NCBI GenBank assembly: GCA_963790475.1
Contig: CAWBOS010000019.1
Span: 1-31,906 of the forward strand
DNA length: 31,906 bases
Source: an uncultured delta proteobacterium
GTDB lineage: Bacteria; Desulfobacterota; RBG-13-43-22
Direction of reading: 5' to 3'
The translations under genes were made by a program, and so were the position numbers. The notes beneath the pieces were generated by a model. It searched no databases. It was given only the letters and a program-made list of their open reading frames with translations, and was not told the DNA's origin. This document shows positions 8,341 through 24,607 of the stretch, in pieces. The stretch's first letter is position 1, and each line of letters opens with the position of its first letter.

Positions 8341-8859
8341 ATGAAAACCCTTTTTGGTTTCTTCTTTTGTCTACTGATCTTTTCAAGTCTGGCCCAGGCT
8401 GGTCCTCCTCTATTGACCAGCGACACCGGCACCCCGGGAGATCGGCATTGGGAGATCAATGTCGGTTTATCCGGGGAAAAGACCTCTACTCATTTCCAAT
8501 GGGCCGTTCAGGCCCTGGACCTCAATTACGGACTTGGAGAAAGGATACAACTCAAATATGAGCTGCCCTGGATCTTTTCCAGACCCGAGGGAGAAGAAAC
8601 CAAGGACGGCATCGGCAATTCGGTCTTAGGGATAAAATGGCGGTTTTTTGATGAAGAGCGCCAGGGAATCGCCATATCTACCTATCCCCAGGTTGAATTC
8701 AATACCTCCAACTCCTCGGTGGACAAGGGCCTGGTGGATAAAGGCCCCAAATACATCCTCCCTTTGGAGATTGAACGGAAGATCGGTCCGGTCAATGTCA
8801 ATGGGGAGGTCGCCGGTGGAGGTCAAATATCAAAGTCGAGAAGACGGATTCAGCTTTAG
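8341..8859 (+). pseudogene. Outer-membrane beta-barrel 'transporter'-like protein, C-terminally truncated
   Basis: Signal peptide, GPPLLTSDTGTPGDRHWEIN, DLNYGLGERIQL and GIGNSVLGIKWRF. Barrel-like sequence stops near 8810 and unrelated sequence follows. Confidence 0.6.
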
Positions 8860-9022
8860 AGCGAGGGCCGGCACACCTTGCGTGTGACCATGGAAGGCGA
8901 CCGGATTCAACGCTTTTATGATGGTAAGAAGTATGTGCAAGCGAAGGACTCGACCTTTCAGGAATCAGGCAAAATTGGTCTGTGGACCAAGGCGAAGCAC
9001 GGAGTCTTTTTGATGACTTGAA
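8828..9022 (+). pseudogene. Degenerate C-terminal remnant of a DUF1080 (3-keto-disaccharide hydrolase-like) gene
   Basis: Reads RRIQL*SEGRHTLRVTMEGDRIQRFYDGKKYVQAKDSTFQESGKIGLWTKA, then SLFDDL in a shifted frame. Not in the ORF track. Confidence 0.65.
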
Positions 9023-9037
9023 AAAGAAGGTCTGCAA

Positions 9038-10054
9038 ATGGTAAAGCCCAATCGAAAAAACATTGAGGTCTGGTTGTATCTGGTCCTTACCTTGGCCTTT
9101 CTGTGGGGGAGCGAAACCCGGACTCAAGGCGCCGCACCCCTCCGGCTGATACAGACGATACCACTGCCGGGGGTCAGCGGGCGCATCGACCATATGGCCA
9201 TAGACCTCAAAGGGGGGCGTCTTTTCCTGGCTGCCGTCGGCAACAACTCCCTTGAAGTTCTTGACCTTCCGACAGGCAGGCATCTCAAAAGAATCAGTGG
9301 GTTAAAAGAGCCGCAGGGTGTTGTGTACGTTTCCGGGTTGAACAGGCTTTTTGTGACCAACGGAGGGGATGGGTCTTGCCATATCTATGAAGGCGATTCG
9401 TTTCGGCTTATTGGTAAAGTAAAATTTTCTGAAGATGCTGACAATATCCGTTATGATCCAGGGACAAGGCAGATTTATGTGGGTTATGGCCGTGGCGCTT
9501 TGGGCGCAATCGAGGCCAGTAATGGAAAGCGTATCGGTGATGTCGGGCTGGCCGGCCACCCGGAATCGTTTGTATTAGAAGAGAGAGGATCCCGCATCTT
9601 TATAAATATACCTTCGGCGGATCAAGTTGCCGTCGTCGATCGAAGTAGACTGGCCCTGGTGACCACCTGGCCAGTGGTAGGGGCCAGGTCGAATTTCCCA
9701 ATGGCCTTGGATGAAACCAGTCATCGTCTCTTTATCGGCTGCCGACAGCCCCCCATAATCCTGGTCTTCGACAGTGAGTCACACCACGAGGTAACCCGAT
9801 TAGAGATCGCCGGGGATGTGGACGATATCTTTTATGACCCGGCTCTAAAACGTATCTATGCTTCCGGCGGGGGAGGACTCCTCAACATCATTCAACAGAA
9901 CGCTGCCGATCAGTACATCCTCCTGGCAAAAATCTCCACGGCAAAAGGGGCCCGGACTTCGCTGTTTGTCCCTGAACAAAGGCGTCTCTATCTGGCCATA
10001 CCGGATCATGGTAAACAACCAGCGCGGGTGCACATTTATGCCCTTGATCCGTGA
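9038..10054 (+). CDS. YncE-like exported beta-propeller protein
   Basis: Signal/anchor segment and repeated blades (GRIDHMAIDLKGGRLF, DADNIRYDP, FPMALDETSHRLF, DVDDIFYDP). Confidence 0.8.
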   Translation: MVKPNRKNIEVWLYLVLTLAFLWGSETRTQGAAPLRLIQTIPLPGVSGRIDHMAIDLKGGRLFLAAVGNNSLEVLDLPTGRHLKRISGLKEPQGVVYVSGLNRLFVTNGGDGSCHIYEGDSFRLIGKVKFSEDADNIRYDPGTRQIYVGYGRGALGAIEASNGKRIGDVGLAGHPESFVLEERGSRIFINIPSADQVAVVDRSRLALVTTWPVVGARSNFPMALDETSHRLFIGCRQPPIILVFDSESHHEVTRLEIAGDVDDIFYDPALKRIYASGGGGLLNIIQQNAADQYILLAKISTAKGARTSLFVPEQRRLYLAIPDHGKQPARVHIYALDP

Positions 10055-10236
10055 TGAAAAGAAAGAACAGATGACCAGGAGACCGAAAACCTGTCCCGAC
10101 CGCCCTTATAGGACTGGCGAGTTTAATCATTCTCTGGCTCTTCAAAATCCACGAACCCTTATTGATCGCCGCAGCCGCCGTGGCCGGGATGCTGTTATAC
10201 GGCCGATGATGGAGAAGACAAACCTTTCTTAAATTC

Positions 10237-11097
10237 TCAGCTAGTTTTCTTGAAGGGGAACTCCGGCCACCAGGGATAAAAATCCGGCAGGTCTCGGCTC
10301 AATTTCATGGGAAAGTTAGGCTTTCGCTTTTCTAAGAAAGCGTTAACACCTTCCCGGCAGTCCTCTGAACGGCCCATGAAAAACACGGCCTTGGACTCGA
10401 CACGATGGGCATCCATGGGATGTTCGGCGCCGAGCATTCTCCAGACCAGTTGTTTAGTCAGGGCCACGGAAATGGAAGAGGTGTTCTCGATTATTTCACG
10501 GGCTTTTTCCATGGCTGCCGGCAAAAGGTCTTCCGCGGGCAGCACCCGATGCAATAGTCCGGTTTGCAAGGCTTCCTGGGCGGAAAAAACACGGCCGGAT
10601 ATCAGCCATTCCGCTGCCTGCCCTATTCCCACCACGCGGGGCAGAAACCAGGTGCAGCAGCCATCCGGAGCGATGGCCCTTCGGGTAAACACAAAACCCA
10701 TCCTGGCCGTATCCGCCGCCAGCCGGATATCCATGGGCAGGGTCATGGTGGCGCCTATGCCCACCGCCGGCCCATTGATGGCGGCAATCACCGGTTTTTT
10801 CATCTCGAAAATACGGAGGTTTAATACCCCACCCCCGTCCCGGAATTCATCGATTGTCTCCGCCCTATAACTAAAGGCCGATCCCCCACCGGCACTCAGA
10901 TCCGCCCCGGCGCAAAAGCCGCGTCCGGCTCCGGTGAAAATCAACACCCTGACCTCGTCGTCTTCCTCGGCCTGATCAAGGGCCCGAATTAATTCCCGGC
11001 CCATCTGTGCTGTAAAAGCGTTCAGTTTATCCGGTCTGTTCAAGGTGATGAGCCCGATTCCTTTTTCTTTTTCGTACCTGATTTGTTCAAACGGCAT
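10237..11097 (-). CDS. Enoyl-CoA hydratase/isomerase (crotonase family)
   Basis: ITLNRPDKLNA, FCAGADL, KPVIAAINGPAVGIG, EGVNAFLEKRKP. Confidence 0.93.
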   Translation of the reverse strand: MPFEQIRYEKEKGIGLITLNRPDKLNAFTAQMGRELIRALDQAEEDDEVRVLIFTGAGRGFCAGADLSAGGGSAFSYRAETIDEFRDGGGVLNLRIFEMKKPVIAAINGPAVGIGATMTLPMDIRLAADTARMGFVFTRRAIAPDGCCTWFLPRVVGIGQAAEWLISGRVFSAQEALQTGLLHRVLPAEDLLPAAMEKAREIIENTSSISVALTKQLVWRMLGAEHPMDAHRVESKAVFFMGRSEDCREGVNAFLEKRKPNFPMKLSRDLPDFYPWWPEFPFKKTS

Positions 11098-11287
11098 GGC
11101 TTCTCCTTAACTGTTGTGAATTTTAAATTCAATAAGCCAATTTAACACTTCTTATCTGCAAATACCATCCTGGTCTAATCCCGGGGTCGGCAAAAGAGCC
11201 CTCCATCCCTGACCTCCGACAAGTTTCTGCCCTGACCTTTTAACGGACATCTGAAAATTGTCCTATCGATCTCCGGAGCGAAGTCTT

Positions 11288-11316
11288 TTGACATACAGGC
11301 CGGGCCTTTGTATAAT
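11288..11316 (+). promoter_or_regulatory. Consensus sigma-70 promoter for the ATL gene
   Basis: TTGACA-17 bp-TATAAT, exact consensus. Confidence 0.8.
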
Positions 11317-11325
11317 TTACCTTCT

Positions 11326-11787
11326 ATGAAAAAGATTGCCACGTCACTAACTAGAGAAAATGGTCGGGTCCGAAGTTCCCTGAAGACAAATCCTAAGAGG
11401 AAACTGATTAATTTTTTTCAACAACGGGTCTTGGAGATAGTGCGGGCCATACCGCGCGGTCACGTATTGACCTATGGGCAGGTGGCGGCCTTGGCCGATA
11501 CCCCGCGGGCCGCGCGGCAGGTGGGACGTATCCTCTACTCTTCCGGACGAACCGTGCCCTGGCAGCGGGTGATTAATCATTACGGGGGGCTTTCGACCTA
11601 CAAGGTCGGCAGCGGGGAACAGCAACGGGCCTTACTGGAAAACGAGGGCGTTTCCTTTAAGGAGGATGGAACCCTTGACCTGAAACGATATCAATGGCAG
11701 CCGAGTCTGAAGATGATTAAGAAAATGAAACTGCCGGAGGAGGTCGCTTTCCAGATCAATGCCCGGTTACCTTTTTCCCAAAGATAG
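11326..11787 (+). CDS. Alkyltransferase-like protein (MGMT family, non-catalytic ATL/YbaZ type)
   Basis: IPRGHVLTYGQVA, ARQVG, and PWQRV in place of the catalytic PCHRV. Start moved to ATG 11326, downstream of the promoter. Confidence 0.88.
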   Translation: MKKIATSLTRENGRVRSSLKTNPKRKLINFFQQRVLEIVRAIPRGHVLTYGQVAALADTPRAARQVGRILYSSGRTVPWQRVINHYGGLSTYKVGSGEQQRALLENEGVSFKEDGTLDLKRYQWQPSLKMIKKMKLPEEVAFQINARLPFSQR

Positions 11788-12032
11788 GGTGAAATCAATA
11801 GATACTCTCCTTTCTCATTTTCATCCACTTTGGTGGGTGAATGCCTAATAAGGGACAGAAGTAAATCCCACCTATTATTAACCTGCTTTATTTAATTTAT
11901 TGATTTTTGATGTTATTTGTCTTAATAAAGCTAGTGTGTCGTTTGCTCTGCCATTGATCAAATTTAACAAGTAAGCCTATTTAACCTTCACCAAACAGGG
12001 ATTATTGATCTTTCACTCAAAAGGAAAGAAAA

Positions 12033-15000
12033 ATGCCCCGCATATTCGACAACATCGAACTTGATCTGCTCCCGGCCCTTCGGGGAACACTAACGCTTTC
12101 CGACCGCTCCGACTTCTGTGTCGGTTACTTCAACCTGCGGGGCTGGAAAGCCATCGATGACCTTATTGAAAAATGGCCAGGAGGCCCCGAGAAACAATGC
12201 CGGCTGCTGGTGGGAATGCAGCGCCTGCCCCAAGAAGAGCTGCGCAAAGCACTGAGTCGGGTTAACGGTCCTGATGAGCTTGACAATCATACTGTCATAC
12301 GTCTGAAGAAGACCTTGGCCGAAGAATTCCGAAACCAGTTAATCCTCGGGGTGCCGACCAATGCCGACGAAGCGGGCTTACGGCGATTATCCGCCCAGCT
12401 CAAGGCGGGCAAGGTCGTCGTTAAACTGTTTCTGCGCCATCCCCTTCATGCCAAGCTTTATCTTTTGTTCCGCTCTGATCCCATCAATCCGGTCATCGGT
12501 TATTTGGGCAGTAGTAATCTAACCCTGTCAGGACTTTCCCATCAGGGAGAACTCAATGTTGATGTCCTCGACCACGATGCCGCCATTAAGCTGGGAAACT
12601 GGTTTGAAGATCGCTGGAACGACCGCTGGTGTGTGGATATCACGCAGGACTTAATCCGGTCCATAGACGAAAGCTGGGCTCGGGAAGAGCCCATCCCTCC
12701 CTATCAAATCTTCATAAAAATGGCCTATCATCTGGCCCAGGAAGCCCGGGCCGGGTTGACGGAGTTTCGGATTCCTTCAGAGTTCGGTCGCCGCCTTTTC
12801 GATTATCAGGTAGCGGCGGTAAAGATCGCTGCGCATCATCTTAACAAACGGGGCGGGGTGCTTATTGGTGACGTTGTCGGCCTGGGGAAGACCCTGATGG
12901 CCACCGCTCTGGCCAAAATCTTCCAGGAAGACCACTACACCGAAACCCTCATCCTCTGTCCAAGAAATTTGGTGAAGATGTGGGAAGACTATGTGGCTGA
13001 ATACCGCTTGCTGGCCAAAGTGCTTTCTTTAACCAGGGCGGTCCGCGAACTGCCTGACCTTAGGCGTTACCGGGTGGTCCTCATTGATGAGAGCCAGAAT
13101 CTCCGCAACCGGGAAGGGAAACGCTATCGGGCGATTCAGGAATACATTCAGGAAAACGAGAGCAAATGTATTTTGCTTTCGGCTACGCCGTACAACAAAA
13201 CCTATCTCGATCTTTCCAGTCAACTTCGTTTGTTTGTGTCAGAGGACCAGGACCTGGGGATTCGTCCTGAAAGGCTGCTCCGGGATTTGGGGGAAACCGA
13301 GTTTATCCGCCGCCACCAGTGTCCGGTCCGCTCCATTGCCGCTTTCGAAAAGAGCGAATACGCCGACGACTGGCGGGAGCTGATGCGGATCTACATGGTC
13401 AGGCGGACACGCAGTTTCATTCAAGACAACTATGCCGACACCGATCCAGCCACAAAACGAAAATACCTGACTTTCGAAGATGGGACCCGATCCTTTTTTC
13501 CCGAACGGATCCCCAAGACAATAAAATTCAAGGTTGATGAAAAAGACCCTTCGGACCAATATGCCCGCCTTTACGCACCGGATGTGGTGGAGGCTATCAA
13601 CCGTCTCAAACTTCCTCGTTATGGGCTGGGGAACTATATCGCCGCTACCCCCCACAAACCACCCACGCCGATCGAGGCCAGACAACTCCAGGATCTTTCC
13701 AGGGCGGGTAAGCGTTTGATGGGTTTTTGTCGGACCAATCTCTTCAAGCGTTTGGAAAGTAGTGGTGATGCCTTCCAGCAATCTATAGAGCGGCATATCC
13801 TCCGGAACCACGTTTTCCTTCATGCCATCGAAAACGGCCTGCCTCTGCCGCTGGGCACCCAGGATTCGGGCCTGCTGGACAGCGGCAACTACGACGAAGA
13901 CGTGGATGATATTACGGCCAATGCTGAACTTTTCGAACAAAACGACGAGGAGCCCCAAAAAAGACAGGGGCCATTACACTTTCGTGCTGTAACCGATTTC
14001 AAAACCCGCGCCGCTGAAGTTTACGATACCTATGCCACCCAGCTCAAAAATCGCTTCAAATGGCTCCGGTCCGACCTTTTCGTCAAAGCGTTGGCCAAAG
14101 ACCTGGCCGAAGATGCCTTGAGTTTGATCAATTTGCTGTTGCGTTGCGGGGATTGGGACCCGAAAAAGGATGCCAAGGTTGAGGCCCTCCATGAACTTCT
14201 TACCAAGCGCCATCCGAAAGAGAAAGTCCTGGTTTTTACCCAGTTTGCCGATACGGCCCGTTACCTGGAGTACCAATTACGTACTCGTAGTGTAGGAAAA
14301 CTGGCCAAGGTCACCGGGGAGGATGAAGACCCAACCGGTTACGCCTGGCGCTTCAGCCCGGAATCCAATGCCAAACGGGATCGGATTCAACCGGGGGATG
14401 AACTTCGCGTATTGATCGCCACCGATGTCCTCTCCGAAGGACAGAACCTTCAGGATTGCCCCATTATCGTCAATTTCGACCTGCCTTGGGCCATTATCCG
14501 CCTGGTCCAGCGTGCCGGACGGGTGGACCGTATCGGGCAGAAGTCCGAAAGGATTCTCTGCTATTCCTTCCTGCCGGCAGATGGTGTTGAAAACCTGATC
14601 CGGCTGCGGGCTCGGGTTCGCCAGCGGCTGAATGAAAATGCGGAAGTGATCGGCACCGATGAGGCTTTTTTTGAAGATGAGCAGGAACGGGAAACCCTTT
14701 ATAACCTTTATGATGAGAAAGCGGGCATCCTGGATGGGGACGAAGAGTCGGAAGTGGACCTTTCTTCCTATGCCTACCAAATATGGAAAAACGCCATCGA
14801 TCTTGACCCAAAACTGCAGCAAATTATCCCGGCCCTGCCGCCGGTCGTCTTTTCGACCCGACCCCATCAGGCCACAGAAAAAAAACCTCATGGTGTCTTG
14901 GTGTATCTGCGAACCGCCGAGGGAAACGACGCTTTAGCCTGGATGGATAAGGAGGGCAATCCGGTAACCGAATCGCAGTTCGAAATCCTCAAAGCGGCCG

Positions 15001-15413
15001 AATGCCTGCCGGATACTCCTGCTCTTTCGCGGCAGGAGAATCACCATGAACTGGTCCGTAAGGGGGTGGAGTTGATTGCCGCCGAAGAAAGATCAATAGG
15101 TGGTCAATTAGGACGACCTTCGGGCGCTCGCTTTCGCACCTACGAGCGCTTAAAGCGTTACGCTGAACAAGTCAGGGGTACTCTCTTTGACTTGCCGGAG
15201 CTGGCGAAAAGTATCGAAGATATCTACCGCTTCCCTTTGCGGCAGTCGGCCGTTGATACCCTTAACCGGCAGCTTCGGGCAGGGGTGTCCGACGAGAAAC
15301 TCGCCGGGCTGGTCATGGCCTTGCGCGACGAGGACCGGCTCTGCATTGTTCATGAAGAAGAAAGACCAAGCGAGCCGCAGATTATCTGTTCTTTGGGGCT
15401 GGCAGAAAAATAA
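12033..15413 (+). CDS. PLD-family nuclease fused to SNF2-type SF2 helicase (restriction-like subunit)
   Basis: N-terminal HAKLY...GSSNLT...ELN. Walker A GDVVGLGKT, Walker B LIDESQ, motif III SATP, SEGQNLQ, and motif VI QRAGRVDRIG. Confidence 0.92.
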   Translation: MPRIFDNIELDLLPALRGTLTLSDRSDFCVGYFNLRGWKAIDDLIEKWPGGPEKQCRLLVGMQRLPQEELRKALSRVNGPDELDNHTVIRLKKTLAEEFRNQLILGVPTNADEAGLRRLSAQLKAGKVVVKLFLRHPLHAKLYLLFRSDPINPVIGYLGSSNLTLSGLSHQGELNVDVLDHDAAIKLGNWFEDRWNDRWCVDITQDLIRSIDESWAREEPIPPYQIFIKMAYHLAQEARAGLTEFRIPSEFGRRLFDYQVAAVKIAAHHLNKRGGVLIGDVVGLGKTLMATALAKIFQEDHYTETLILCPRNLVKMWEDYVAEYRLLAKVLSLTRAVRELPDLRRYRVVLIDESQNLRNREGKRYRAIQEYIQENESKCILLSATPYNKTYLDLSSQLRLFVSEDQDLGIRPERLLRDLGETEFIRRHQCPVRSIAAFEKSEYADDWRELMRIYMVRRTRSFIQDNYADTDPATKRKYLTFEDGTRSFFPERIPKTIKFKVDEKDPSDQYARLYAPDVVEAINRLKLPRYGLGNYIAATPHKPPTPIEARQLQDLSRAGKRLMGFCRTNLFKRLESSGDAFQQSIERHILRNHVFLHAIENGLPLPLGTQDSGLLDSGNYDEDVDDITANAELFEQNDEEPQKRQGPLHFRAVTDFKTRAAEVYDTYATQLKNRFKWLRSDLFVKALAKDLAEDALSLINLLLRCGDWDPKKDAKVEALHELLTKRHPKEKVLVFTQFADTARYLEYQLRTRSVGKLAKVTGEDEDPTGYAWRFSPESNAKRDRIQPGDELRVLIATDVLSEGQNLQDCPIIVNFDLPWAIIRLVQRAGRVDRIGQKSERILCYSFLPADGVENLIRLRARVRQRLNENAEVIGTDEAFFEDEQERETLYNLYDEKAGILDGDEESEVDLSSYAYQIWKNAIDLDPKLQQIIPALPPVVFSTRPHQATEKKPHGVLVYLRTAEGNDALAWMDKEGNPVTESQFEILKAAECLPDTPALSRQENHHELVRKGVELIAAEERSIGGQLGRPSGARFRTYERLKRYAEQVRGTLFDLPELAKSIEDIYRFPLRQSAVDTLNRQLRAGVSDEKLAGLVMALRDEDRLCIVHEEERPSEPQIICSLGLAEK

Positions 15414-15489
15414 TACCACAAAATTTCCCTTCCGGTTCAAGACCATTATGATAAAATTTCAAAAATTTACCAATTCAGGAGGTCCGGCC

Positions 15490-15684
15490 ATGAGCCTAAC
15501 CGCAAAAAACCTATCGGCTCTTAAGATCATCAGGGCAGTGGAATGTCTTTCTGAAGACGAAAAAGAAACCCTGGCCATTCTGGCCGATAAAAAATTATCG
15601 GGGGAATTATTAAAAAGAAGAAAGGATGTCTATCTGGAACTGAAAAAGGGAACCCTTTTAAGTCCAAAAGATCTTTTCACATAA
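15490..15684 (+). CDS. Small putative antitoxin (64 aa)
   Basis: RBS AGGAGG and ATG at 15490, with upstream TGnTAAAAT. Sits directly before a RelE-like fragment. Confidence 0.65.
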   Translation: MSLTAKNLSALKIIRAVECLSEDEKETLAILADKKLSGELLKRRKDVYLELKKGTLLSPKDLFT

Positions 15685-15799
15685 AGGAACGAATTATCGT
15701 ATTGTTTATGAGCTTTTTGAGGAAGACCGGCTTGTGGTCATTACCATGATTGGCAACAGGGAAACCTTTTACGAAAAATTAAAACGAAGGGTATTATAA
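15683..15799 (+). pseudogene. C-terminal half of a RelE/ParE-family toxin with no start codon
   Basis: KGTNYRIVYELFEEDRLVVITMIGNRETFYEKLKRRVL* matches the YRIVY...IGxRExFY pattern. There is an in-frame stop just upstream. Confidence 0.75.
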
Positions 15800-15804
15800 C
15801 TTAT

Positions 15805-18800
15805 TTGAATCTCAATAAAGATCGACTCCGTTCCCTTCTAAAAGGATATGACTTTCAACCTCTTTTCATAGAAGAGCTGGGCTGGGATTATTTTCACTCC
15901 TCCATCGATGTCCCTGTGGAGGGGAAAACCTTTCCTTTGGAAGGTATTGCCCAAAAACGGGGACTGGCGGTCTTTGTATTAACTCTCCCTTCTGATCTTC
16001 CTTTTCCCAATTACCCGACCCGGCGGAAAATCGAGACTAAACTTGCCAAGTCGATTCATGAACATCTCATTATCTTTATCGATATCATAAGGTCCATCCA
16101 AATCTGGCAATGGGTGAAACGTGAGCCCGGAAAACCCGCCTCCTGCCGCGAACATACCTTTCATCGAAATCAATCCGGTGATGCCCTGATTCAGAAACTT
16201 GAATCCATCACCTTTACCCTGGATGAGGAAGAACGGTTGACGCTTCCTGACGTGACCGGCCGCGCCCGTGCTGCTTTCGACGTGGAGCGGGTCACCAAGC
16301 GTTTTTACGACCGGTTTCAAAAAGAGCATGCGCAGTTTTTTAAATTCATCACGGGCATCACCGATCAGGAGGATCATGAGTGGTATGCCTCGGTCATGCT
16401 CAACCGTTTAATGTTCGTCTATTTCATTCAGCGCAAGGGCTTCCTGGACGGCGATCCCGATTATCTCCGCAACCGGCTGAATCGGATGCGGGCTGAACAT
16501 GGGGAGGGCAAGTTTTATTCATTCTATCGCTACTTTCTTTTGCGGCTGTTCCATGAAGGTCTAGGCGGGCGCTCCAGGTCAAAGGAACTGGAGAAACTGA
16601 TCGGTAAAATACCTTATCTTGACGGGGGTATTTTTGACATTCACGAACTGGAACGACCGGATCGCTACGGAAAAGATATTCACATCCCCGACGAGGCCTT
16701 TGAGCACATCTTCGATTTCTTCGACCAATATCAGTGGCACTTAGACGAACGCCCGCTGCGAGCGGACAATGAAATCAATCCGGACGTCCTCGGCTACATC
16801 TTTGAAAAATACATTAACCAGAAACAGATGGGGGCTTATTACACTAAGGAGGACATCACCGGGTATATCAGCAAGAATACGGTGATCCCATTCCTTTTTG
16901 ATACGGCCCGGGCCAAGTGTAAGGTCGCTTTCGAAAAAAGTGGCTCAGCCGCCTCGACTGAGAATCCAACAGTCTGGGACCTGCTCCGGGCTGACCCCGA
17001 TCGCTACATCTATAAGGCCATTCGTCACGGCCTAACCTGGAACTATCAGCCCAATCATCCCAACCAGGGTGCGCCGCTGGACCAGCCCTACGAATTGCCG
17101 GAAGACATCGCCACAGGCTTAAACCCATCCACTTTGCACCAACCTGTCGGAGAGGTAGCTTCGGTTAACGACATTGAAACCATCCGGCTGCGGAAAAACT
17201 GGAACAAGGCGGCCCCGCCTGAATATGCCCTGCCCACCGAGACCTGGCGCGAAGTCATTGCCCGGCGCAAGCGGTACGATGAAATAAAAACCAAACTTGC
17301 CGCCGGAGAGGTGCATGAAATCGATGACCACATCACCTATAACCTGGATATCCGCCAGTTCGCCCAGGACGTGATTGAAAACTGCGAAGGTCCGGACCTG
17401 CTTCGCGCCATCTGGCAGTCCCTCGAAAAAATCTCCATCCTGGACCCGACCTGCGGATCAGGGGCGTTTCTATTCGCCGCTCTCAACATCCTGGAGCCGC
17501 TTTATGAAGCTTGCTTATGTAGGATGGAGGCCTTCATCGAAGACCTTGAGCGTTCCGGAGAAAAGCATCGGCCGGAAAAGTTTTCCGATTTCCGGAAATT
17601 ATTGGCCAAAGTCGCCGCACATCCCAACCGCCCCTACTTTATTTTCAAGAGCATCATCCTGAACAACCTTTACGGTGTGGATATCATGGAAGAGGCCGTG
17701 GAAATCTGTAAGCTCCGCCTCTTCTTGAAGCTGGCCGCACAGGTTGATCCTGACCCTGCCAAACCCAATCTTGGAATAGAGCCCCTGCCGGATATCGACT
17801 TCAACATCCGGGCCGGAAATACCCTGGTGGGTTACGCCCGTTATGAAGACGTACTCAAAAGCGCCGAAGGGGATTGGGTCCGGCTCAATGAAATCGAACA
17901 GGTCAAGGTCGCCGCCGCCGATCTTCAACAAACCTTTGACTCCTTCCGTGCCCGACAGGTGGAAGGAGACGGCTCCGTGCCCCACGAGCACAAGCAGGAA
18001 CTCCGCAAAAGACTTGCCGCCCTGAACGAAGAACTTAACCGCTATCTTGCTGGCGAGTATGGAATCAGTAAAGAAAATATTACGAACAAGAAAAAATACC
18101 AGGACGCCTACGCAAAATGGCTCAAATCCCACCAGCCCTTCCATTGGTTTGTGGAGATTTACGGTATAATCCAAGGGCGTGGTGGATTTGATGTCATTAT
18201 CGGGAATCCACCGTATGTTGAGTACCGTAAAGTCGTAAAGCAGTATACTTTGCCTTCTGAATTCGATAAATATTGCGCTAACCTGTATTCAGCCTGCTCC
18301 TACCGCGGGCATCTTCTGAAGAAGCCATCAGGCTACCTATCCTTTATCGTGCCGGTTTCCCTTGGGAGTACAGATCGAATGCACGACCTGCGGGAAATCA
18401 TCTCTAAAGGTCATAAAATTCATCATGTGAGCTTCAGCACCCGTCCTTCAAAGCTATTTGAAGGCGCTGAGCAACGCCTCACCATATACATACAATCTCC
18501 AGCCCAAAACCCCACAGTCTACTCAGGAGGCTACTTAAAATGGACGAAAGAAGAAAGGCCGTATCTCTTCGCCTTGGTCCACTATACTTGCTTGGAGCCT
18601 TTGGCCAAAAGGAAATCCCTCTGGCCCAAAGTCAATGGACAATTTGAGCGACGCATTTTTCAAAAAATGCTTCACAATAAAAAAATTGACTCTGACGTTC
18701 TTGGTATAGGAGCCAAGTTGTACTACAAGAATACGGGTATTAGGAACTTCAATACAGTGACTCTACGCCCACCGAAATGTTGGATTAATAACACGCCGAC

Positions 18801-19224
18801 GTCAAGCTCACGGGAAACCATCCTCGATCTAAAGCCAGAACAAATGCATCCAATGCATTGCTTTCTTATCAGCAGCACGTTCTTCTTTTACTATCAAGCT
18901 ACCTCGAATTGCCGGGACCTCAATCCTTCTGACATCTATTTTGCTCCAGAACCCGATTGGTCATCGAGCATAAAGGAACTCAAGGAGCTTAGCCAAGCAG
19001 TCGAAAAGGATTACACTTCTAAGGCGAAAATCCTGAAAATGCACAACAAGTTGACGGGCCTTGTTGAGGTGGAATCCTTGACGCCATCCGTCTCCAAGTC
19101 CATCATCGACGAAATTGACCGCGTCCTTGCCCGGCACTATGGCTTTACCGAGGAGGAACTGGACTTCATTATTAACTACGACATCAAGTATCGCATGAGG
19201 CGGGAGACAGACGAGGAGGAATGA
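15805..19224 (+). CDS. Large gamma-class N6-adenine DNA methyltransferase (Eco57I/Type IIG-like M-TRD architecture)
   Basis: Motif X GAYYT, motif I ILDPTCGSGAFL, LYGVDI, NIRAGNTL, and motif IV IIGNPPY. A TRD-sized region follows, then the helical tail. TTG start. Confidence 0.92.
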   Translation: MNLNKDRLRSLLKGYDFQPLFIEELGWDYFHSSIDVPVEGKTFPLEGIAQKRGLAVFVLTLPSDLPFPNYPTRRKIETKLAKSIHEHLIIFIDIIRSIQIWQWVKREPGKPASCREHTFHRNQSGDALIQKLESITFTLDEEERLTLPDVTGRARAAFDVERVTKRFYDRFQKEHAQFFKFITGITDQEDHEWYASVMLNRLMFVYFIQRKGFLDGDPDYLRNRLNRMRAEHGEGKFYSFYRYFLLRLFHEGLGGRSRSKELEKLIGKIPYLDGGIFDIHELERPDRYGKDIHIPDEAFEHIFDFFDQYQWHLDERPLRADNEINPDVLGYIFEKYINQKQMGAYYTKEDITGYISKNTVIPFLFDTARAKCKVAFEKSGSAASTENPTVWDLLRADPDRYIYKAIRHGLTWNYQPNHPNQGAPLDQPYELPEDIATGLNPSTLHQPVGEVASVNDIETIRLRKNWNKAAPPEYALPTETWREVIARRKRYDEIKTKLAAGEVHEIDDHITYNLDIRQFAQDVIENCEGPDLLRAIWQSLEKISILDPTCGSGAFLFAALNILEPLYEACLCRMEAFIEDLERSGEKHRPEKFSDFRKLLAKVAAHPNRPYFIFKSIILNNLYGVDIMEEAVEICKLRLFLKLAAQVDPDPAKPNLGIEPLPDIDFNIRAGNTLVGYARYEDVLKSAEGDWVRLNEIEQVKVAAADLQQTFDSFRARQVEGDGSVPHEHKQELRKRLAALNEELNRYLAGEYGISKENITNKKKYQDAYAKWLKSHQPFHWFVEIYGIIQGRGGFDVIIGNPPYVEYRKVVKQYTLPSEFDKYCANLYSACSYRGHLLKKPSGYLSFIVPVSLGSTDRMHDLREIISKGHKIHHVSFSTRPSKLFEGAEQRLTIYIQSPAQNPTVYSGGYLKWTKEERPYLFALVHYTCLEPLAKRKSLWPKVNGQFERRIFQKMLHNKKIDSDVLGIGAKLYYKNTGIRNFNTVTLRPPKCWINNTPTSSSRETILDLKPEQMHPMHCFLISSTFFFYYQATSNCRDLNPSDIYFAPEPDWSSSIKELKELSQAVEKDYTSKAKILKMHNKLTGLVEVESLTPSVSKSIIDEIDRVLARHYGFTEEELDFIINYDIKYRMRRETDEEE
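19121..19206 (+). repeat. Direct repeat copy 1 (3' tail of the methyltransferase gene)
   Basis: 74/86 nt identical, ungapped, to 21301-21386. Confidence 0.95.
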
Positions 19225-19230
19225 CATATG

Positions 19231-19349
19231 CTTGAATTTCAAATAGTTCGACTCAAGATAATTTTCCCTGCACAACTTATCCCTATCGGAAACAAAAAAG
19301 ATTTTAAGTTGGCGGCCACAAAGCAAAACGTTAAAATGTGAAATTCAAG
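19231..19349. repeat. 119-bp segment bounded by inverted repeats
   Basis: cttgaatttca (19231) and tgaaattcaag (19339): 11 bp perfect, 13/14 when extended inward. Confidence 0.5.
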
Positions 19350-19362
19350 AGGTTAAAAAACC

Positions 19363-19995
19363 ATGGATTATGTGCAAATAAAAAGTATTGTAGAAGAGGC
19401 GGTCAAAAATGCAGGTCAATTTAAGTGGTGGCTTTATCTTTTAATCCTTGTAATAGCAGCTTCGGGTTCGTTCTTGGGCTCATACTTGAAAAAAAAAGCT
19501 GAAAATTTAGCCACCAAAGAGGACATAGAGGATATAACTAAAAAAATTGAAGAAATCCGGTCGGGATACAATGCACAAATCGAATTCTTAAAGGCATCCC
19601 TTCAACTATCAAATCAACTAAAATTAGCCGCACTTGATAAACGGCTCCAAAAACATCAGGAGGCATATTCACTTTGGAGAAAATTACTTTTTAGCTTAAA
19701 CCATAAAGAAAAGATCATACCTGCAATCATAGAATGTGAAAACTGGTGGGATGAAAACTGTTTATATCTCGGGCATGAGGCAAGATCGGCATGTAAAAAA
19801 GCAATATTTGAGGCTGTTATTTTTAAGGATCTTGCTGAAGGTGAACCAATAAGAAAAAGTCAAAATATAGTTGAAGATGCCGGTAAAAAGATTGTCGATG
19901 GTGTCAATTTGATCTATTTGGGTAAAGAAGGTAAGGAACCGTCGGAATATGAAATAGTTAACTATACAATGGATCCAACGCTCGGACCGATTTGA
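19363..19995 (+). CDS. Hypothetical membrane-anchored coiled-coil protein (AT-rich cargo)
   Basis: RBS gagg, one transmembrane helix, then KKAENLATKEDIEDITKKIEEI. Confidence 0.75.
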   Translation: MDYVQIKSIVEEAVKNAGQFKWWLYLLILVIAASGSFLGSYLKKKAENLATKEDIEDITKKIEEIRSGYNAQIEFLKASLQLSNQLKLAALDKRLQKHQEAYSLWRKLLFSLNHKEKIIPAIIECENWWDENCLYLGHEARSACKKAIFEAVIFKDLAEGEPIRKSQNIVEDAGKKIVDGVNLIYLGKEGKEPSEYEIVNYTMDPTLGPI

Positions 19996-20049
19996 ATGTT
20001 GGGAATATGAATCAATTTTCTCATCACTTCAATTCAAAAAATAGGAGAA

Positions 20050-20358
20050 ATGCTAGCCATGGCAATGATTTATTATTTCAAAGACGGGCCACGTCCAGGA
20101 AACTCCGGTCCTGGTTATAAGGTGTCTCTGCAGGACCTGGAAACAAAGATAGGAAATCAACGGATTAAATATCTTGACCCAGCGCTACCAGAAATTAATA
20201 AGGATAATCCTTCGATGAATCCATGTTGGGTAGTTGTAGAAATTGAGTCCGGAGACCGATTTGGCCGCTTTTTCGATAAAATAGGCTTTTATATTGTTTT
20301 GGATTTGACTCCTGAGAAAGCACACAGAAAATTATTTAAAATGCCCAATGCGTCTTAA
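20050..20358 (+). CDS. Hypothetical protein (AT-rich cargo)
   Basis: RBS aggag and a 102-aa ORF co-oriented with the island. No recognised motif. Confidence 0.6.
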   Translation: MLAMAMIYYFKDGPRPGNSGPGYKVSLQDLETKIGNQRIKYLDPALPEINKDNPSMNPCWVVVEIESGDRFGRFFDKIGFYIVLDLTPEKAHRKLFKMPNAS

Positions 20359-20476
20359 GATGTTAAGTCTAAAAACCAAAATTTTCCAAAATCCCCCGGT
20401 AGAACGGCAGTGGCTGAGAGAAAATAAATCTGACATGATTTAAATAAAGAAACCCAAAAACGTTCGAGAGCATTTT

Positions 20477-21280
20477 ATGGAATTTTTAATACCACTAAAA
20501 GACATCGTAATAGAGCCAGGGAAACGGCTTGATGTATCTGCCGGTTCCGAAGAAGAGGTTGTCGCCTTAATCAAAAAGACCTATGGCTTCATCGCTGAAG
20601 CGATGGAGATATCCGTTCAGGACGGTTTGGTCCGGATTAAATTCAAAGACGCCACTCCGGAGAAGATCAATGAAGCCCTGGCCAAATTGAAGAAGGCGGT
20701 CAAGGAAGGGCAAGAGGGCAGACTCCTGAAGGCCCTGAAATTGTTCCAGGAGGTTCTGGCCGTTATCCCCGAGCACGTAGACGCCAGACGGAATCTGGCC
20801 AAGACGTACCTGGAGTTGGGAAATTTGGATAAGGCCAAGAAACATTTGAACGAATGCATTCAAATAAATCCCAAGGATTTCTGGTCCTATATCATGCTGG
20901 GGAATATCTATGCCCGGAACGAACGCAACCTGGACGTGGCCGAGTTTTATTATGAAAAAGGCATTGAGATCAATCCGGATGACGCAATGGTACTGAACAA
21001 TTATGCCAACCTGATGATGGAGAAGGGCAATTTCGCCAAGGCGGAGGAAAATTTCAAGAAGTCTTTGAAATTGAATGCCGGTTATCCTCATACCTACTTT
21101 GGCTTGGCCCTTCTTTACCGGATGGCCGGCCATCCGGAGGAAAGCCTCCAAGTTTTAGAAAGGCTGTTATCCACCCTGCCCAATGTTCAGGGTATCGAAT
21201 CTTCCCAAGTTTATAAAGAGGCCAAGGATCTCTACCGGGAAATAAAGAAGGAAATTAACTCAAAGGATACGGTCCATTAA
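20477..21280 (+). CDS. Tetratricopeptide-repeat protein with a small N-terminal alpha/beta domain
   Basis: About five TPR units (ARRNLAKTYLELGNLDKAKKHL, SYIMLGNIY, VLNNYANLMMEKGNFAKAEENF, TYFGLALLY). Confidence 0.88.
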   Translation: MEFLIPLKDIVIEPGKRLDVSAGSEEEVVALIKKTYGFIAEAMEISVQDGLVRIKFKDATPEKINEALAKLKKAVKEGQEGRLLKALKLFQEVLAVIPEHVDARRNLAKTYLELGNLDKAKKHLNECIQINPKDFWSYIMLGNIYARNERNLDVAEFYYEKGIEINPDDAMVLNNYANLMMEKGNFAKAEENFKKSLKLNAGYPHTYFGLALLYRMAGHPEESLQVLERLLSTLPNVQGIESSQVYKEAKDLYREIKKEINSKDTVH

Positions 21281-21300
21281 GAGGCACATTGAACTGTATT

Positions 21301-21410
21301 GCGTCCTCGCCCGGTACTACGGTTTCACCGAGGAGGAACTGGACTTCATCATCAATTACGACATCAAATACCGTATGGGGCGGGAGGCTGAAAAAGAGGA
21401 AGATGAATAA
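21301..21410 (+). pseudogene. Orphan 3' tail of a second, diverged methyltransferase allele (direct repeat copy 2)
   Basis: 21303-21410 encodes VLARYYGFTEEELDFIINYDIKYRMGREAEKEEDE*, against VLARHYGFTEEELDFIINYDIKYRMRRETDEEE* in the intact gene. No in-frame ATG upstream. Confidence 0.92.
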
Positions 21411-21480
21411 AAAGCCAAGGTATTTCTCGAAGGCATTATGGGGGAGAATTCGGATTCAAACCCCATAAAATTCCTTTGGA

Positions 21481-21509
21481 TTGACGAGCATCGACTTCGA
21501 TCGTATAAT
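21481..21509 (+). promoter_or_regulatory. Sigma-70 promoter for the UPF0175-like gene, with a palindrome in the spacer
   Basis: TTGACG-17 bp-TATAAT; the spacer contains atcga-ct-tcgat. Confidence 0.75.
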
Positions 21510-21543
21510 AATAAAAAAGGGCTTTTTAAAAAGGAGGGCTATT

Positions 21544-21840
21544 ATGTGGCAGTTAAAACAACTTGAAAAACTGCGGGAGATTGAACCCGATGTCGTTGAT
21601 GGAGCCATTCAAATGCTTTTAGAAAGGGAAATTGCCCTGAAAGAAAAGCTGATTATCGGCGCCTACATGGACGGTGACATTAATTTCGGCAAGACCGCGG
21701 AGTTATTAAACATTCATCCCGTAAAATTGAGAGAGCTTTTTTTATCCAGAGGGATTCCGATAAAAATGGGGGTTTCTTCGGAAGAGGAGATACAGGCCGA
21801 AGCCTTCTCCGCCCGGAAAATGCAGGATAACGGCCAATGA
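21544..21840 (+). CDS. UPF0175-family putative antitoxin
   Basis: RBS AAGGAGG and ATG at 21544. AYMDGDINFGKTAELLNIHPVKLRELFLSRGI is an HTH-like pattern. Confidence 0.75.
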   Translation: MWQLKQLEKLREIEPDVVDGAIQMLLEREIALKEKLIIGAYMDGDINFGKTAELLNIHPVKLRELFLSRGIPIKMGVSSEEEIQAEAFSARKMQDNGQ

Positions 21841-21893
21841 TATTCTTTGATTTATAAACTAATTCGCATGCCAAGGTCGGAAAGGAGGTTTAA

Positions 21894-22097
21894 ATGGAAA
21901 CTTATGAATATGTGGCTGAAGTTTTATCTGATGGACATCTTTCTGTCCCGGAGAAGTTAAAAGAAAAATTGCGCAAAAAGACCAAAGTGAAAGTCATGAT
22001 TTTGATTGGGGATCAAGAATCAGATTGGAATAATTTTACGATGTCCCAGTTCTTAAAGGGGTATTCGGAGAAGGACGTCATCTATGACGACCTATAA
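21894..22097 (+). CDS. Putative antitoxin (AbrB-like N-terminus, acidic tail)
   Basis: RBS AAGGAGG, AEVLSDGHLSVPE...KVKVMIL and GYSEKDVIYDDL. Overlaps the toxin start. Confidence 0.75.
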   Translation: METYEYVAEVLSDGHLSVPEKLKEKLRKKTKVKVMILIGDQESDWNNFTMSQFLKGYSEKDVIYDDL

Positions 22098-22407
22098 TTT
22101 TGGAGATATAATTTTTGTTGGATTTCCTCATTCAGACTTGGAAGGTATAACCAAAAGACCGGCAGTAGTTCTATATGATTCCGGGGACCAGGACGTCCTT
22201 GTCGCCAGGGTAACAACGCAGGACTATAATTCTGAAACGGATTATAAAATATCCGATTGGGAAAAATGTGGATTGCTTGCAGCCTCGACTGTTAGATTGA
22301 GCAAACAAGCAACCATTGAAAAACGATTTATATTGAGGGAGTTGGGAACATTAGGAAATGCCGAAATATTCGAATTGAAATCTATCTTGAAAAAAATATT
22401 TTCGTGA
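22084..22407 (+). CDS. PemK/MazF-family toxin
   Basis: FGDIIFVGFPHSD...KRPAVVL...VARVTT...GLLAASTVRLSK...LGTL. Confidence 0.85.
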   Translation: MTTYNFGDIIFVGFPHSDLEGITKRPAVVLYDSGDQDVLVARVTTQDYNSETDYKISDWEKCGLLAASTVRLSKQATIEKRFILRELGTLGNAEIFELKSILKKIFS

Positions 22408-22549
22408 TAGATGAAATATTTAGCACTTTCAGAGGAGGAGTAACAAATTCTGAGTAAACCCGCCAGGAGGCTCCACCAGCAATTTTATATCGTATATCCC
22501 GAGATTTGACAATCAATAATAACCAAATCTGAAAGGGAAATCTCCGAAT

Positions 22550-23116
22550 ATGGATAAAAGAACGAACCAGCCTCACATGGCATTGCTTCTTACCCTAAGC
22601 CATTGTGCCTATCCGGCCAACCTCCTTGACCGCTTTAAGGAAAAGGCACCGGAGAAATTGGCGGCCATCGGTCCTATCGAGCACCTTGCCAACCGAAAAA
22701 CGGCCCTATTTTGTTCGGCCCAAACACCGGGAGAGGCCATCCTGCGGGCCCATGATATGGCCCGGCGCCTGCGCGATGAGGGAACAACAGTCATCAGCGG
22801 CTTTCATTCCCCTATCGAAAAAGAATGCCTGAGTATACTCCTCCGCGGCAAGCAGCCCATCATCATCTGCCCCGCTCGGGCCATTGAAGGAATGCGTATC
22901 CCCGCTGAATGTCGTCCGGCCTTCGATGCTGGAAGGATTCTATACCTCTCCCCATTTGTTGAAAAACCGAGGCGAGTGGACCGTGACTCCGCCCTATACC
23001 GCAATGAGATAGTGGCCGCCCTGGCCGATTCCGTTTATCTTGCCCATGTGCAACCCGGTGGGGATACTGATCGCATTGCCTTGTTCCTCAAAAAATGGGG
23101 TATTCAAAGCTTGTAG
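22550..23116 (+). CDS. Short SMF/DprA-like SLOG-fold protein
   Basis: YPANL...IG...ALFCS...VISGFHSPIEKECL...YLSPF...RNEIVAALAD mirrors the DprA Rossmann core. It lacks SAM and winged-helix domains. The start may be ATG 22577. Confidence 0.78.
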   Translation: MDKRTNQPHMALLLTLSHCAYPANLLDRFKEKAPEKLAAIGPIEHLANRKTALFCSAQTPGEAILRAHDMARRLRDEGTTVISGFHSPIEKECLSILLRGKQPIIICPARAIEGMRIPAECRPAFDAGRILYLSPFVEKPRRVDRDSALYRNEIVAALADSVYLAHVQPGGDTDRIALFLKKWGIQSL

Positions 23117-23215
23117 CTTCGGTAGTCGGCCAACAGACCAGTATCTTACGCATTCTTAATTTTTTTTTCAGATCAGCCAATAATTTGTTGTCTCCGGTCT
23201 TACCTCATTCCCCAG

Positions 23216-24442
23216 CTATTCTTTCACCCCCGAAATACTTTCCAATGGATGACTGGCCCTTTCCAGCTTTTTTACCGTTGGGATCACATATTCCGGCACA
23301 GGTTTCAGGGTAATGGCCTTGTCTTTATCGCAAGCCACATAGCAAAGGCCGCAGCCTATGCAGCGTATCGGTTCAAAAGCCCGGGTTTTATTTTTGGTAT
23401 CCACGGTCCAGGCCCCCATGGGGCAGGCCTTGGCGCATTTTCCGCAATAGGAGCATTTGGCGGCATCCACTTCCGGCATGAAATGGGGAGGAGCTATACG
23501 TCCCGGTGCATTGAATTCGCTGATGGACCGCATCATCATGCAGCAGCATCCACAGCAGGAACAGCTCGTATTGGATCCGGCGATTTCATATCCCATGGTC
23601 CAGCTCACCAGCCCGCTGGCCTCGGCTTCGGCCTTTATTTCCAGGGCGTCTCTTAGGGTGATACGCCGCATAAGTCCGGCTTCGCTTTCCCGCACTGCCA
23701 AAGGTCCCATGGTAACGCAGTTTTCCATGGGCCGGCCGCAATATTGACCGATGATCTGGGCGCCCATCCGGCACTGGCAAAGTCCTACGGCAAAATCCTG
23801 ATACTGGTCGAAGATCTCCCCCAATTGATCCGTTGGCAAGGCCATGGGATTATACTCCAGGCTTTGGCCCACTGGTAGATAGCGGATCCCGGGCGGGCGT
23901 TTCCCCACATTAAGGGTGGTAAACCCGGTTTCATAGAGGGGCAGAAAGAGTTCCACAAATTTTTTGTGCCAATCCGTCAGAGTATCCAGGGAAGTTCTTA
24001 CCAGAATGGTTTCCCAGGCCCCCGGGATCAGGGGCTGGAGAAAATATTTCCGGTTGTCACTTTTCTTCGAAGCCAGGATGATCCGTTTTTCATCGGCCAG
24101 ACTATCCATGATGCGGCTTACCTCTTCCGGAGTTCGGTGTTCGGCTTCTGCGATCTCCCGGGCTGTCTTACCGGTCTTAGCCCCTTTCAGATGCCTAACG
24201 AACCCGGCTTCTTCCTCGGTCAGCAGGTGCTTCAGCACCGCGACATACTGGTCGCAGAGAGGGGGACCGCCGAACCGCGGCCCCCACATCTCGGCCACTT
24301 CCAAATAGACTTTCGGAAGGCCGGGATAGTCCTCCGGCGAGCGTTCTCTGATGGCCACCGGACGGGGCTTCACCGGTCCGATCACCCCGTTATTAATTTG
24401 GATAAGACGATTGCCCTTGGTGTTGCGGTTTTCCATTCCCAT
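23216..24442 (-). CDS. 4Fe-4S dicluster domain protein with N-terminal HTH-like region
   Basis: CQCR, CSCCGCCC, CSYCGKCAKACP, CIGCGLCYVAC. RBS aggagg. Confidence 0.88.
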   Translation of the reverse strand: MGMENRNTKGNRLIQINNGVIGPVKPRPVAIRERSPEDYPGLPKVYLEVAEMWGPRFGGPPLCDQYVAVLKHLLTEEEAGFVRHLKGAKTGKTAREIAEAEHRTPEEVSRIMDSLADEKRIILASKKSDNRKYFLQPLIPGAWETILVRTSLDTLTDWHKKFVELFLPLYETGFTTLNVGKRPPGIRYLPVGQSLEYNPMALPTDQLGEIFDQYQDFAVGLCQCRMGAQIIGQYCGRPMENCVTMGPLAVRESEAGLMRRITLRDALEIKAEAEASGLVSWTMGYEIAGSNTSCSCCGCCCMMMRSISEFNAPGRIAPPHFMPEVDAAKCSYCGKCAKACPMGAWTVDTKNKTRAFEPIRCIGCGLCYVACDKDKAITLKPVPEYVIPTVKKLERASHPLESISGVKE

Positions 24443-24607
24443 CCTCCTAAATAGTTATAAGATTATAATCTAATAATGAAATGGGGCTATTTTAGCGATT
24501 CCTTTGATCCATGGCAAGATAAAACATTTTCTTGATCGGCCATTCCGCCTGTTTGCCCTATTATATTGGACGACATAATTTTTTACTACAATCGAATACC
24601 TATTTCC

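Follow-up and report, generated by a model that had tools for sequence, protein, structure and literature searches.

Orphan copies of a methyltransferase gene end as candidate marks of gene acquisition in a bacterial defense locus

Here, we describe a defense locus of an uncultured delta proteobacterium (contig CAWBOS010000019.1 of assembly GCA_963790475.1) in which the 3′ end of a DNA methyltransferase gene, hereafter the tail, is found twice, once attached to the gene and once behind three unrelated genes. The window, that is, the whole stretch of DNA analyzed, is the entire 31.9-kb contig C19 of the 6.34-Mb assembly (G000), and all features given below lie on its plus strand. The island spans ~11.8-23.2 kb, between an O6-alkylguanine-transferase-like gene and a ferredoxin-domain gene, and a single contig of the relative G004 (G004:C19) is syntenic with it on both sides (11500-12263 and 23216-24449). 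The methyltransferase partner, a PLD(HKD)-SNF2 helicase-nuclease, is encoded at 12033-15413 (Pfam PLDc_2, SNF2-rel_dom and Helicase_C; PADLOC 'HKD+Snf2', 1.3e-45; DrmD-like). The methyltransferase itself (15805-19224; 1139 aa, start codon uncertain) is of the Eco57I N6-adenine type (Pfam Eco57I, 5.5e-25) and matches the PADLOC profile REase_MTase_IIG PDLC03628 with 1049 bits in an alignment reaching the last residues. Its layout is that of Type IIG enzymes, an Eco57I/gamma-class N6-adenine methyltransferase domain followed by a C-terminal target-recognition region (TRD; 18224-19094, variable region aa 801-1100), with a GC content of 0.42-0.48 in the TRD versus 0.50-0.56 in the core. Pfam and NCBIfam recognized no nuclease family in the methyltransferase, in which aa 1-450 have no assignment; the PLD nuclease domain is on the adjacent helicase. 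Given that the pair shows only partial DrmD/DrmMI and PglX likeness, below the NCBIfam cut-offs, and that no other DISARM (DrmA/B/C) or BREX (BrxA/B/C/L, PglZ) genes are found in the window, a DISARM or BREX identity is ruled out. MANTIS/Gao_RL, a four-gene system, was likewise rejected as the identity of this system, and no solved structures sequence-related to the methyltransferase were found.

The attached tail, or copy 1 (19093-19224; repeat core 19121-19206), is in frame with the open reading frame (ORF) 15805-19224 and ends at its stop codon, whereas the orphan tail, or copy 2 (21291-21410; repeat core 21301-21386), is a non-coding relic. The two cores align without gaps at 74 of 86 nt, with fainter similarity up to ~19221/21401, and 10 of the 12 differences are synonymous, the others being H/Y at 19135 and R/G at 19198. 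Both counts had been reported in an earlier note made from the sequence alone and were reproduced on recomputation, and the three co-oriented genes that it placed between the copies are present (ORFs 19363-19995, 20050-20358 and 20477-21280). The codon frame of the repeat begins at 19120/21300, with an R/C difference there, just outside the 86 nt compared in that note. When searched with BLAST against the 6.34-Mb assembly, copy 1 matches itself and 21301-21401 only (83%, E 1e-23), far above chance; the longest run of identity between the copies is 23 nt. The in-frame reading of 21291-21410 ends in VLARYYGFTEEELDFIINYDIKYRMGREAEKEEDE followed by a stop codon. Because this frame has no start codon before an internal Met and is out of frame with the gene for a TPR-repeat protein that stops at 21280, copy 2 is not translated as a tail. 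We propose, with a probability of roughly 55%, that it is a decaying untranslated relic of the last ~40 methyltransferase codons and marks a junction with foreign DNA in the defense locus.

Orphan tails are not peculiar to the window. A search of the full methyltransferase against 41 related genomes yielded few full-length homologs and many short-frame matches covering only residues ~1097-1139. Within the genus, 13 stretches from eight relatives were fetched, corresponding to 12 loci (two stretches of G001:C235 overlap); with the window, and with a tail query of 59 aa, these loci hold 20 distinct tails, 4 of them attached and 16 orphan. A phylum sample of 401 genomes gave 31 tail matches in 19 genomes, 9 in frames of at least 865 aa and 22, the orphans, in frames of at most 150 aa, and several genomes carry orphans only. 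Thus, the orphan tails that the earlier note expected at homologous loci are present in 22 of 31 matches, with varying cargo in G001:C235 and in other phyla. In G001:C235 (L023/L024, ~5300-23000), five same-strand orphans follow another methyltransferase, one without this tail, and the genes between them encode AAA_21 with DUF4276, Schlafen/AlbA_2 with a DprA-like protein (twice), AAA_21 with RloB, and a zeta-toxin-like kinase; the same contig also holds one half-tail fused to a truncated DprA-like gene. Elsewhere, orphans are found at the 3′ boundary of unlike modules, namely, a Type I system with RadC and DUF4145 (L033) and an AAA ATPase (L026), as well as 3′ of HsdM in L027, at the syntenic site of G004:C19, and 3′ of Res-type or SNF2 helicases in L028, L223 and L221. 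Tail and downstream gene recur as units that are attached in one genome and orphaned in others.

The ends of the orphans differ in kind. Right ends are at or near the stop codon, and left ends vary from residue 4 to residue 36 of the 59-aa query (~100 nt), which implies that the joints are scattered in a homology patch rather than placed at one fixed site. For at least seven orphans, an unrelated upstream gene (a TPR gene, DUF4276, AAA ATPase, HsdM, Res, DUF4145 or SNF2) stops 0-60 nt before the detectable tail homology, so that no TRD remnant is possible there. The window is among these cases, its TPR stop codon being 10-20 nt before the orphan tail and leaving no TRD upstream of copy 2. Across the set, the orphans decay through stop codons, one frameshift, shared L-to-P changes and a small palindromic insertion. 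The latter, 20-25 nt long, sits at the same position, after the INYD codons, in three orphans (L023 ~16005-16030 and ~19650-19675; L029 ~9620-9645) and is a possible trace of a hairpin-type break or its repair; a dispersed element was rejected, with 1 match in 5 genomes. The opposite end of the operon behaves similarly. The first ~25 codons of the helicase gene, or head (12033-12105), have orphan copies in relatives (blastn 89% to L026, 79% to L033), in which homology begins exactly at the ATG (L026 16658-16731; L033 17072-17127) and AAA_21/DUF4276 genes follow. Because these orphan heads remain upstream of AAA_21/DUF4276 genes, both operon ends, head and tail, survive replacement of the interior. 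The closest methyltransferase homologs, L025 (G004:C35) and L031 (G009:C48), carry internal stop codons or frame breaks. Judging from these reading frames, a number of the systems of this genus are probably no longer active, while the tails and downstream genes persist.

Beyond the phylum, a collection of species-representative genomes supplied 599 candidate stretches, at least 516 of which encode the tail, and the best 80 were analyzed as loci. Tail-bearing phyla include Chloroflexota, Bacteroidota, Cyanobacteria, Nitrospirota, Acidobacteriota and others, with aa identity of 77-92% in the best 80, which comprise 57 attached tails and 7 loci with more than one tail. Two of these 7 (L042 and L048, with tandem full-length methyltransferases) have three tandem genes, and the other 5 have a tail and a downstream orphan. 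The copies in L103 (Aphanocapsa) flank HicA and HicB, are ~105 nt long with 3-4 mismatches, and the repeat ends at the stop codon; those in L093 (Bacteroidales) flank a YhcG/DUF1016 nuclease (PDDEXK), are 62 nt long with 1 mismatch, and stop ~15 nt before the stop codon; and those in L081 (a cyanobacterium) flank small ORFs with no assignment, are ~115 nt long with ~6 mismatches, and end at the stop codon. A GmrSD-type enzyme lies between the tails of L083 (Chloroflexia), and small ORFs with no assignment between those of L062 (Nitrospiraceae). From their near-identity, the pairs in L103, L081 and L093 look like recent local target duplications. A tail also terminates a 344-aa 'hypothetical protein' of a Chlorohelix plasmid (NZ_CP128403.1; L225, locus 6149-7183), two genes after a 945-aa DNA methyltransferase; this ORF may be a split gene or a larger remnant consisting of TRD and tail. 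A similar pair is encoded on the plasmid pSYSX of Synechocystis PCC 6803 (NC_005232.1), where a DNA methyltransferase of ~1100 aa that carries the same C-terminal tail (64% aa) lies behind a helicase-related protein of ~1150 aa, and small toxin-antitoxin (TA) genes are lodged there as well. Unlike in our locus, a VapC pair separates helicase and methyltransferase, and the record has 1 tail place, with no orphan detected.

The history of the locus can be read in part from its closest alleles. Nucleotide homology to G004:C35 and G009:C48 is 83-86% through the helicase and the methyltransferase core, breaks at 18218/18223 and restarts at 19095/19100; at the protein level, G004:C35 is 88-100% identical over residues 300-800, drops to 16-50% over 801-1100 and returns to 90% in the tail. 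This pattern, a different TRD between conserved core and tail, emerged from the comparison of TRDs among relatives that the earlier note suggested and indicates a clean swap of the TRD between close alleles. Copy 1, together with ~45 nt past its stop codon, is 86.9% identical to G004:C35, compared with 85.6% for the methyltransferase core, although TRD and cargo differ there. The short post-stop segment that travels with this tail type (19225-19274) is 87% identical to the sequences following the tail in G004:C35 and the half-tail in G001:C235, beyond which the cargo differs. The spacer between the methyltransferase stop codon and the first cargo ORF also contains a 14-nt inverted repeat (19231-19244/19336-19349; 93% complementary, 91 nt apart), the left arm of which falls in the segment common to the window and G004:C35. 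Copy 2 is nearer to the tails of G001 and G009 (92-94% nt) than to copy 1 (86%), which, in agreement with the earlier note, rules out a recent local duplication of copy 1. With the small gene that follows (21300-21844), copy 2 is 91.6% identical to the orphan L026 in G004:C8, the left end of which differs.

The same note had envisaged that the old TRD was replaced by one incoming fragment, which brought a new TRD with its own tail plus the three cargo genes and stopped before the old tail, so that change of specificity and gain of cargo would be one event. The differing TRD, the lower GC content of the TRD and the first two cargo genes compared with the core, the mostly synonymous differences between the copies, the closeness of copy 2 to foreign tails and the downstream gene in common with the G004:C8 orphan all suit such a single step. 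However, G004:C35 matches copy 1 and the following ~45 nt as well as it matches the core, yet has neither the TRD nor the cargo, so that joint arrival of TRD, tail and cargo is not demonstrable; instead, these comparisons suggest that the three have separable histories. Furthermore, the cargo is a mosaic, as detailed below, and the illegitimate joint at the tail start would still be left to explain. Thus, arrival of all three parts in one step seems unlikely.

The three cargo genes have little in common apart from their orientation. ORF1 (19363-19995; 210 aa, GC 0.35-0.37) encodes a conserved hypothetical, putatively membrane-anchored protein with an N-terminal hydrophobic segment and no Pfam, NCBIfam or PADLOC family; all of its 133 relatives at E<=0.001 are unnamed or 'hypothetical'. 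ORF2 (20050-20358; 102 aa) also matches no family in these three collections and has 2 relatives besides itself. ORF3 (20477-21280; 267 aa) encodes the TPR-repeat protein (Pfam TPR families). GC content is 0.35-0.39 in ORF1 and ORF2 versus 0.47-0.50 in the TPR gene. The latter stands alone in G009:C35 (87% nt, homology confined to the ORF), and none of the 80 metagenome loci with ORF1 relatives has the tail, ORF2 or the TPR gene, on which grounds a conserved three-gene operon was rejected. Hence the 2.18-kb insert, which the earlier note had treated as a three-gene cassette, is a mosaic of independently distributed genes rather than a unit. No mobility domain was found in its three ORFs with Pfam, PADLOC or NCBIfam.

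An orphan tail could also be what remains of a second complete methyltransferase gene or system downstream, deleted down to the tail, which would have been retained for expression of the next gene. Tandem full-length methyltransferases do occur (L042, L048); in L219, a plain deletion of the methyltransferase body has joined a helicase remnant to the tail; and some tails overlap the start of the next gene, as in L103, where the tail stop codon overlaps the next ATG, or carry GGAGG in their acidic end ahead of the next ATG, as in other tails of the genus. By contrast, a promoter scan found no promoter-like site inside copy 2, so that retention for promoter function is not supported; the strongest sigma-70-like match of the region (TTGACG, 17 nt, TATAAT; 11/12) follows the orphan tail, at 21481-21509. 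Moreover, orphans carry stop codons, a frameshift and insertions, the near-identical recent pairs are already only 62-115 nt long, leaving no time for erosion, and the UPF0175-like gene that follows copy 2 is found without a tail, at 96% identity, in G013:C160. Taken together, this makes erosion of a former second system quite improbable.

Integron arrays and tandem islands at tRNA 3′ ends consist of small units separated by a repeated boundary element, with the target gene kept intact, and the arrays of co-oriented small cassettes with a repeated element between them, together with the three orphans interrupted by a palindrome at one identical position, could suggest that the tail is an att- or attC-like site served by an integrase in trans. 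Our locus shares with these systems the co-oriented small units and the supplied 3′ end, but no integrase, attC-like structure or fixed crossover was found here. None of the 20 larger window ORFs scanned belongs to an integrase, recombinase or transposase family; the left ends vary over ~100 nt; there is no common inverted repeat between cassettes, and the intergenic spacers are all unique in the genome; no Rfam families are present in 11000-24000; and the palindrome is not dispersed. Site-specific integration is accordingly very improbable, and the integron reading in particular was rejected for lack of an IntI-type recombinase, attC-like imperfect inverted repeats and a fixed crossover point. 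A phase-variable TRD shufflon was ruled out by the direct orientation of the repeats, the lack of a TRD upstream of the orphan and the absence of a recombinase among the ORFs scanned.

The genome is metagenome-assembled, with an estimated contamination of 9.68%, and many organisms of the same habitats carry the tail, with a depth of up to 265 over 21244-21407, all of which might point to a chimera between strains. A mis-join at the 23-nt identical run, however, would give one hybrid tail, not two around 2.18 kb of unique sequence; both island flanks are syntenic with a single G004 contig; the same architecture recurs in many independent assemblies; and a contig of X1, possibly the source sample, bridges 19133-19375 without differences. 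An assembly artifact is therefore scarcely credible. No sequencing run contained more than 0.22 of the sampled words, and contigs of X1, X2, X3 and X5 were placed on 17800-22700; none is listed with an excision joint, although contigs cannot show rare variants, and none spans the joint between the TPR gene and the orphan with 31 letters on both sides, the read data of these four runs being thin. One X2 record reaches both 19127 and 21318, separated by 10 other letters, and represents a third-party tail rather than an excision product. Tail-to-tail excision, which the earlier note considered feasible at this locus, should be rare here with an identity of 86% and a longest identical run of 23 nt, judging from the requirements of RecA-dependent recombination.

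Is the tail special? Compared with the more distant G008 allele (58% aa), identical residues are encoded by identical codons at 26 of 35 positions in the tail versus 247 of 574 elsewhere (Fisher p 3.6e-4), and all 13 of the 511 43-codon windows that reach at least 0.74 lie in the tail. Because tails in AT-rich genomes use other codons, the simplest reading of these codon comparisons is that the tail has been homogenized within the genus by recombination. A self-BLAST of the genome for direct repeats of 50-400 nt, 200-8000 nt apart, found 177, among which 9 represent the 3′ end of a long ORF repeated downstream as an orphan, versus 7 in the mirror-image control. Five other genes of G000 have their last 68-160 nt repeated downstream of inserts (C12:794000-797500, L133; C10:1068500-1073500, L132; C12:55000-58500, L135; C12:486000-490000, L136; C12:1389000-1393500, L137). 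The duplicated ends are those of a GDP-mannose dehydratase, followed by a glycosyltransferase-methyltransferase gene; a Mo-oxidoreductase (160 nt, 96%), around MazF and RHH; a DAHP synthase; a CCG-domain protein; and a methyltransferase-like gene, followed by IS1595. The inserts comprise a MazF/RHH pair, a glycosyltransferase, a 146-aa ORF, an IS1595 transposase and a ferredoxin-type gene, and the repeat ends within ~10 nt of the host gene stop in 4 of the 5 cases, the CCG-domain case ending 27 nt before it. Thus, the duplication of 3′ ends around inserts is generic in this genome, and the mechanism of the earlier note is less distinctive than that note implies; the methyltransferase tail is unusual in the frequency of its recurrence and in its phylogenetic breadth. 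As side observations, a ~75-nt hairpin-forming element (L133 2900-2995) has 5 copies in G000 and occurs on many contigs of the genus, and a second element of ~55 nt (L133 2266-2319) recurs across the genus.

The relic that we favor as the explanation of copy 2 most likely arose where conservation ends ahead of a variable gene bay, through illegitimate recombination anchored by homology. The repeat, the orphan status of copy 2, the recurrence of orphans with varied cargo, their left and right ends, the TRD swap, the excess synonymous conservation and the like architecture at other genes are observed, whereas the recombination mechanism, the order of events and any present-day mobility are inferred. 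The tail is the last stretch still common to diverged alleles, with the hypervariable TRD upstream and a variable bay of small defense and TA genes downstream. Donor DNA from a related locus would pair at the tail or upstream of it, and the non-homologous far end of the donor would be joined illegitimately a few dozen bases upstream, inside the recipient's own tail. The outcome would be cargo just past the stop codon and, behind it, part of a second tail, with the methyltransferase left intact. Arrays and shuffled modules might result from recurrence of such events and from subsequent exchange between tails, the TRD swap being a separate homologous exchange bounded by core and tail. The divergence of the window copies could then stem from an incoming tail of another allele or from later replacement of the attached copy during TRD exchange. 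Such a model would explain the right end at the stop codon, as the limit of homology, the scattered left ends, the short repeat and the preserved methyltransferase, and we count the near-identical recent tail pairs in other phyla (L103, L093 and L081; also L062 and L083) in its favor. In homology-facilitated illegitimate recombination, one homologous anchor and one illegitimate joint capture foreign DNA beside a conserved segment, a process that in natural transformation was reportedly described in 2002 by de Vries and Wackernagel and by Prudhomme. Unlike the duplicating pattern seen here, its classic form gives deletions more than duplications.

By analogy, the locus is most likely an instance of insertion with long target duplication, with the methyltransferase tail as the target and other defense and TA genes as the cargo. 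In Furuta 2010 (PMC2853133), restriction-modification (RM) genes are described as inserted with long target duplication, flanked by direct repeats of 24-423 bp and lacking mobility genes; some of the repeats overlap gene 3′ ends, the species are mostly naturally competent and the mechanism is unknown. Our locus is similar in the size and identity of its repeats (86-101 nt, 83-86%; >30 bp), in its 2.18-kb insert (<20 kb) and in the lack of a transposase or integrase in the insert. It differs in that those insertions consist of the RM system itself, whereas in our case an RM-type gene supplies the duplicated target, through its tail, and no R and M genes are present in the insert. Moreover, the same tail has been hit repeatedly across phyla, and the window copies have diverged (86%) and are nearer to different foreign tails than to each other. 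The same source describes the exchange of TRDs between alleles of Type IIG and Type I S genes, with a variable domain between conserved sequences (Furuta 2010, PMC2853133). Our TRD is likewise flanked by conserved sequence and variable among close strains, but its 3′ boundary element in addition outlives module turnover in the form of orphan copies. A literature search found no publication on orphan methyltransferase tails; it did not cover supplements and is no proof of absence.

Several considerations weigh against this account. No empty-site relative for the locus was found among the 41 and 21 genomes searched, so that insertion rather than deletion is not proven in this case. Random joints alone fail to explain the deletion in L219 and the replacements by unrelated RM systems that end at the tail start, and larger remnants exist, such as the 344-aa ORF of L225 ending in the tail. 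The excess synonymous conservation of the tail could instead reflect a constraint at the DNA or RNA level, and the 9 cases in the genome are no clear excess over the 7 of the control.

A bolder proposal is that the highly conserved tail is a portable, recombinase-free landing pad that captures cargo of any related locus after the stop codon and leaves one tail copy per capture, which we can entertain only tentatively. If so, the five-orphan array of G001:C235 would be an ordered record of serial acquisitions, integron-like but driven by host recombination, and tails would let defense modules be exchanged between strains and across system types. The idea of the tail as an anchor, first raised in the earlier note, thus survives in part: the recurrent boundary beside varying cargo and the TRD swap speak for it, and the cassette gained in a single event is poorly supported. 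The unusual conservation of synonymous sites in the tail between diverged alleles also fits exchange at the tail.

To the right of copy 2, the bay continues with further small genes. The UPF0175-like gene (21481-21840; Pfam UPF0175, 1.7e-05, below the cut-off) is tail-linked in G004:C8; the sigma-70-like match at 21481-21509 overlaps its listed TTG start, and its true start is probably further downstream than 21481. It is followed by an antitoxin-like ORF with a MazF/PemK toxin (21894-22407; Pfam PemK_toxin, 1e-10; a weak NCBIfam RelN antitoxin match, far below the cut-off), a module found separately in 6 genomes of the family. Next is a short DprA/SMF-like, PsyrA-like gene (22550-23116; Pfam DNA_processg_A; PADLOC PsyrA, 1.9e-13), homologs of which lie downstream of tails in L023, L025, L031, L035, L219 and L223; this gene might represent either a third system component or the fixed border of the cargo bay.

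It is an open question how genes enter and leave defense islands when no dedicated mobility enzymes are involved, and this locus and its relatives provide a countable case: one conserved gene end has repeatedly served as the joint between a stable system and changing cargo, and its scars outnumber the intact genes in one genus and persist after loss of the methyltransferase. If the anchor mechanism fails, the locus is still a well-documented example of the known turnover of RM loci. If it holds, orphan tails could mark unknown defense genes and help to reconstruct the order of gene acquisition, and insertions with long target duplication would be linked to a testable recombination pathway.

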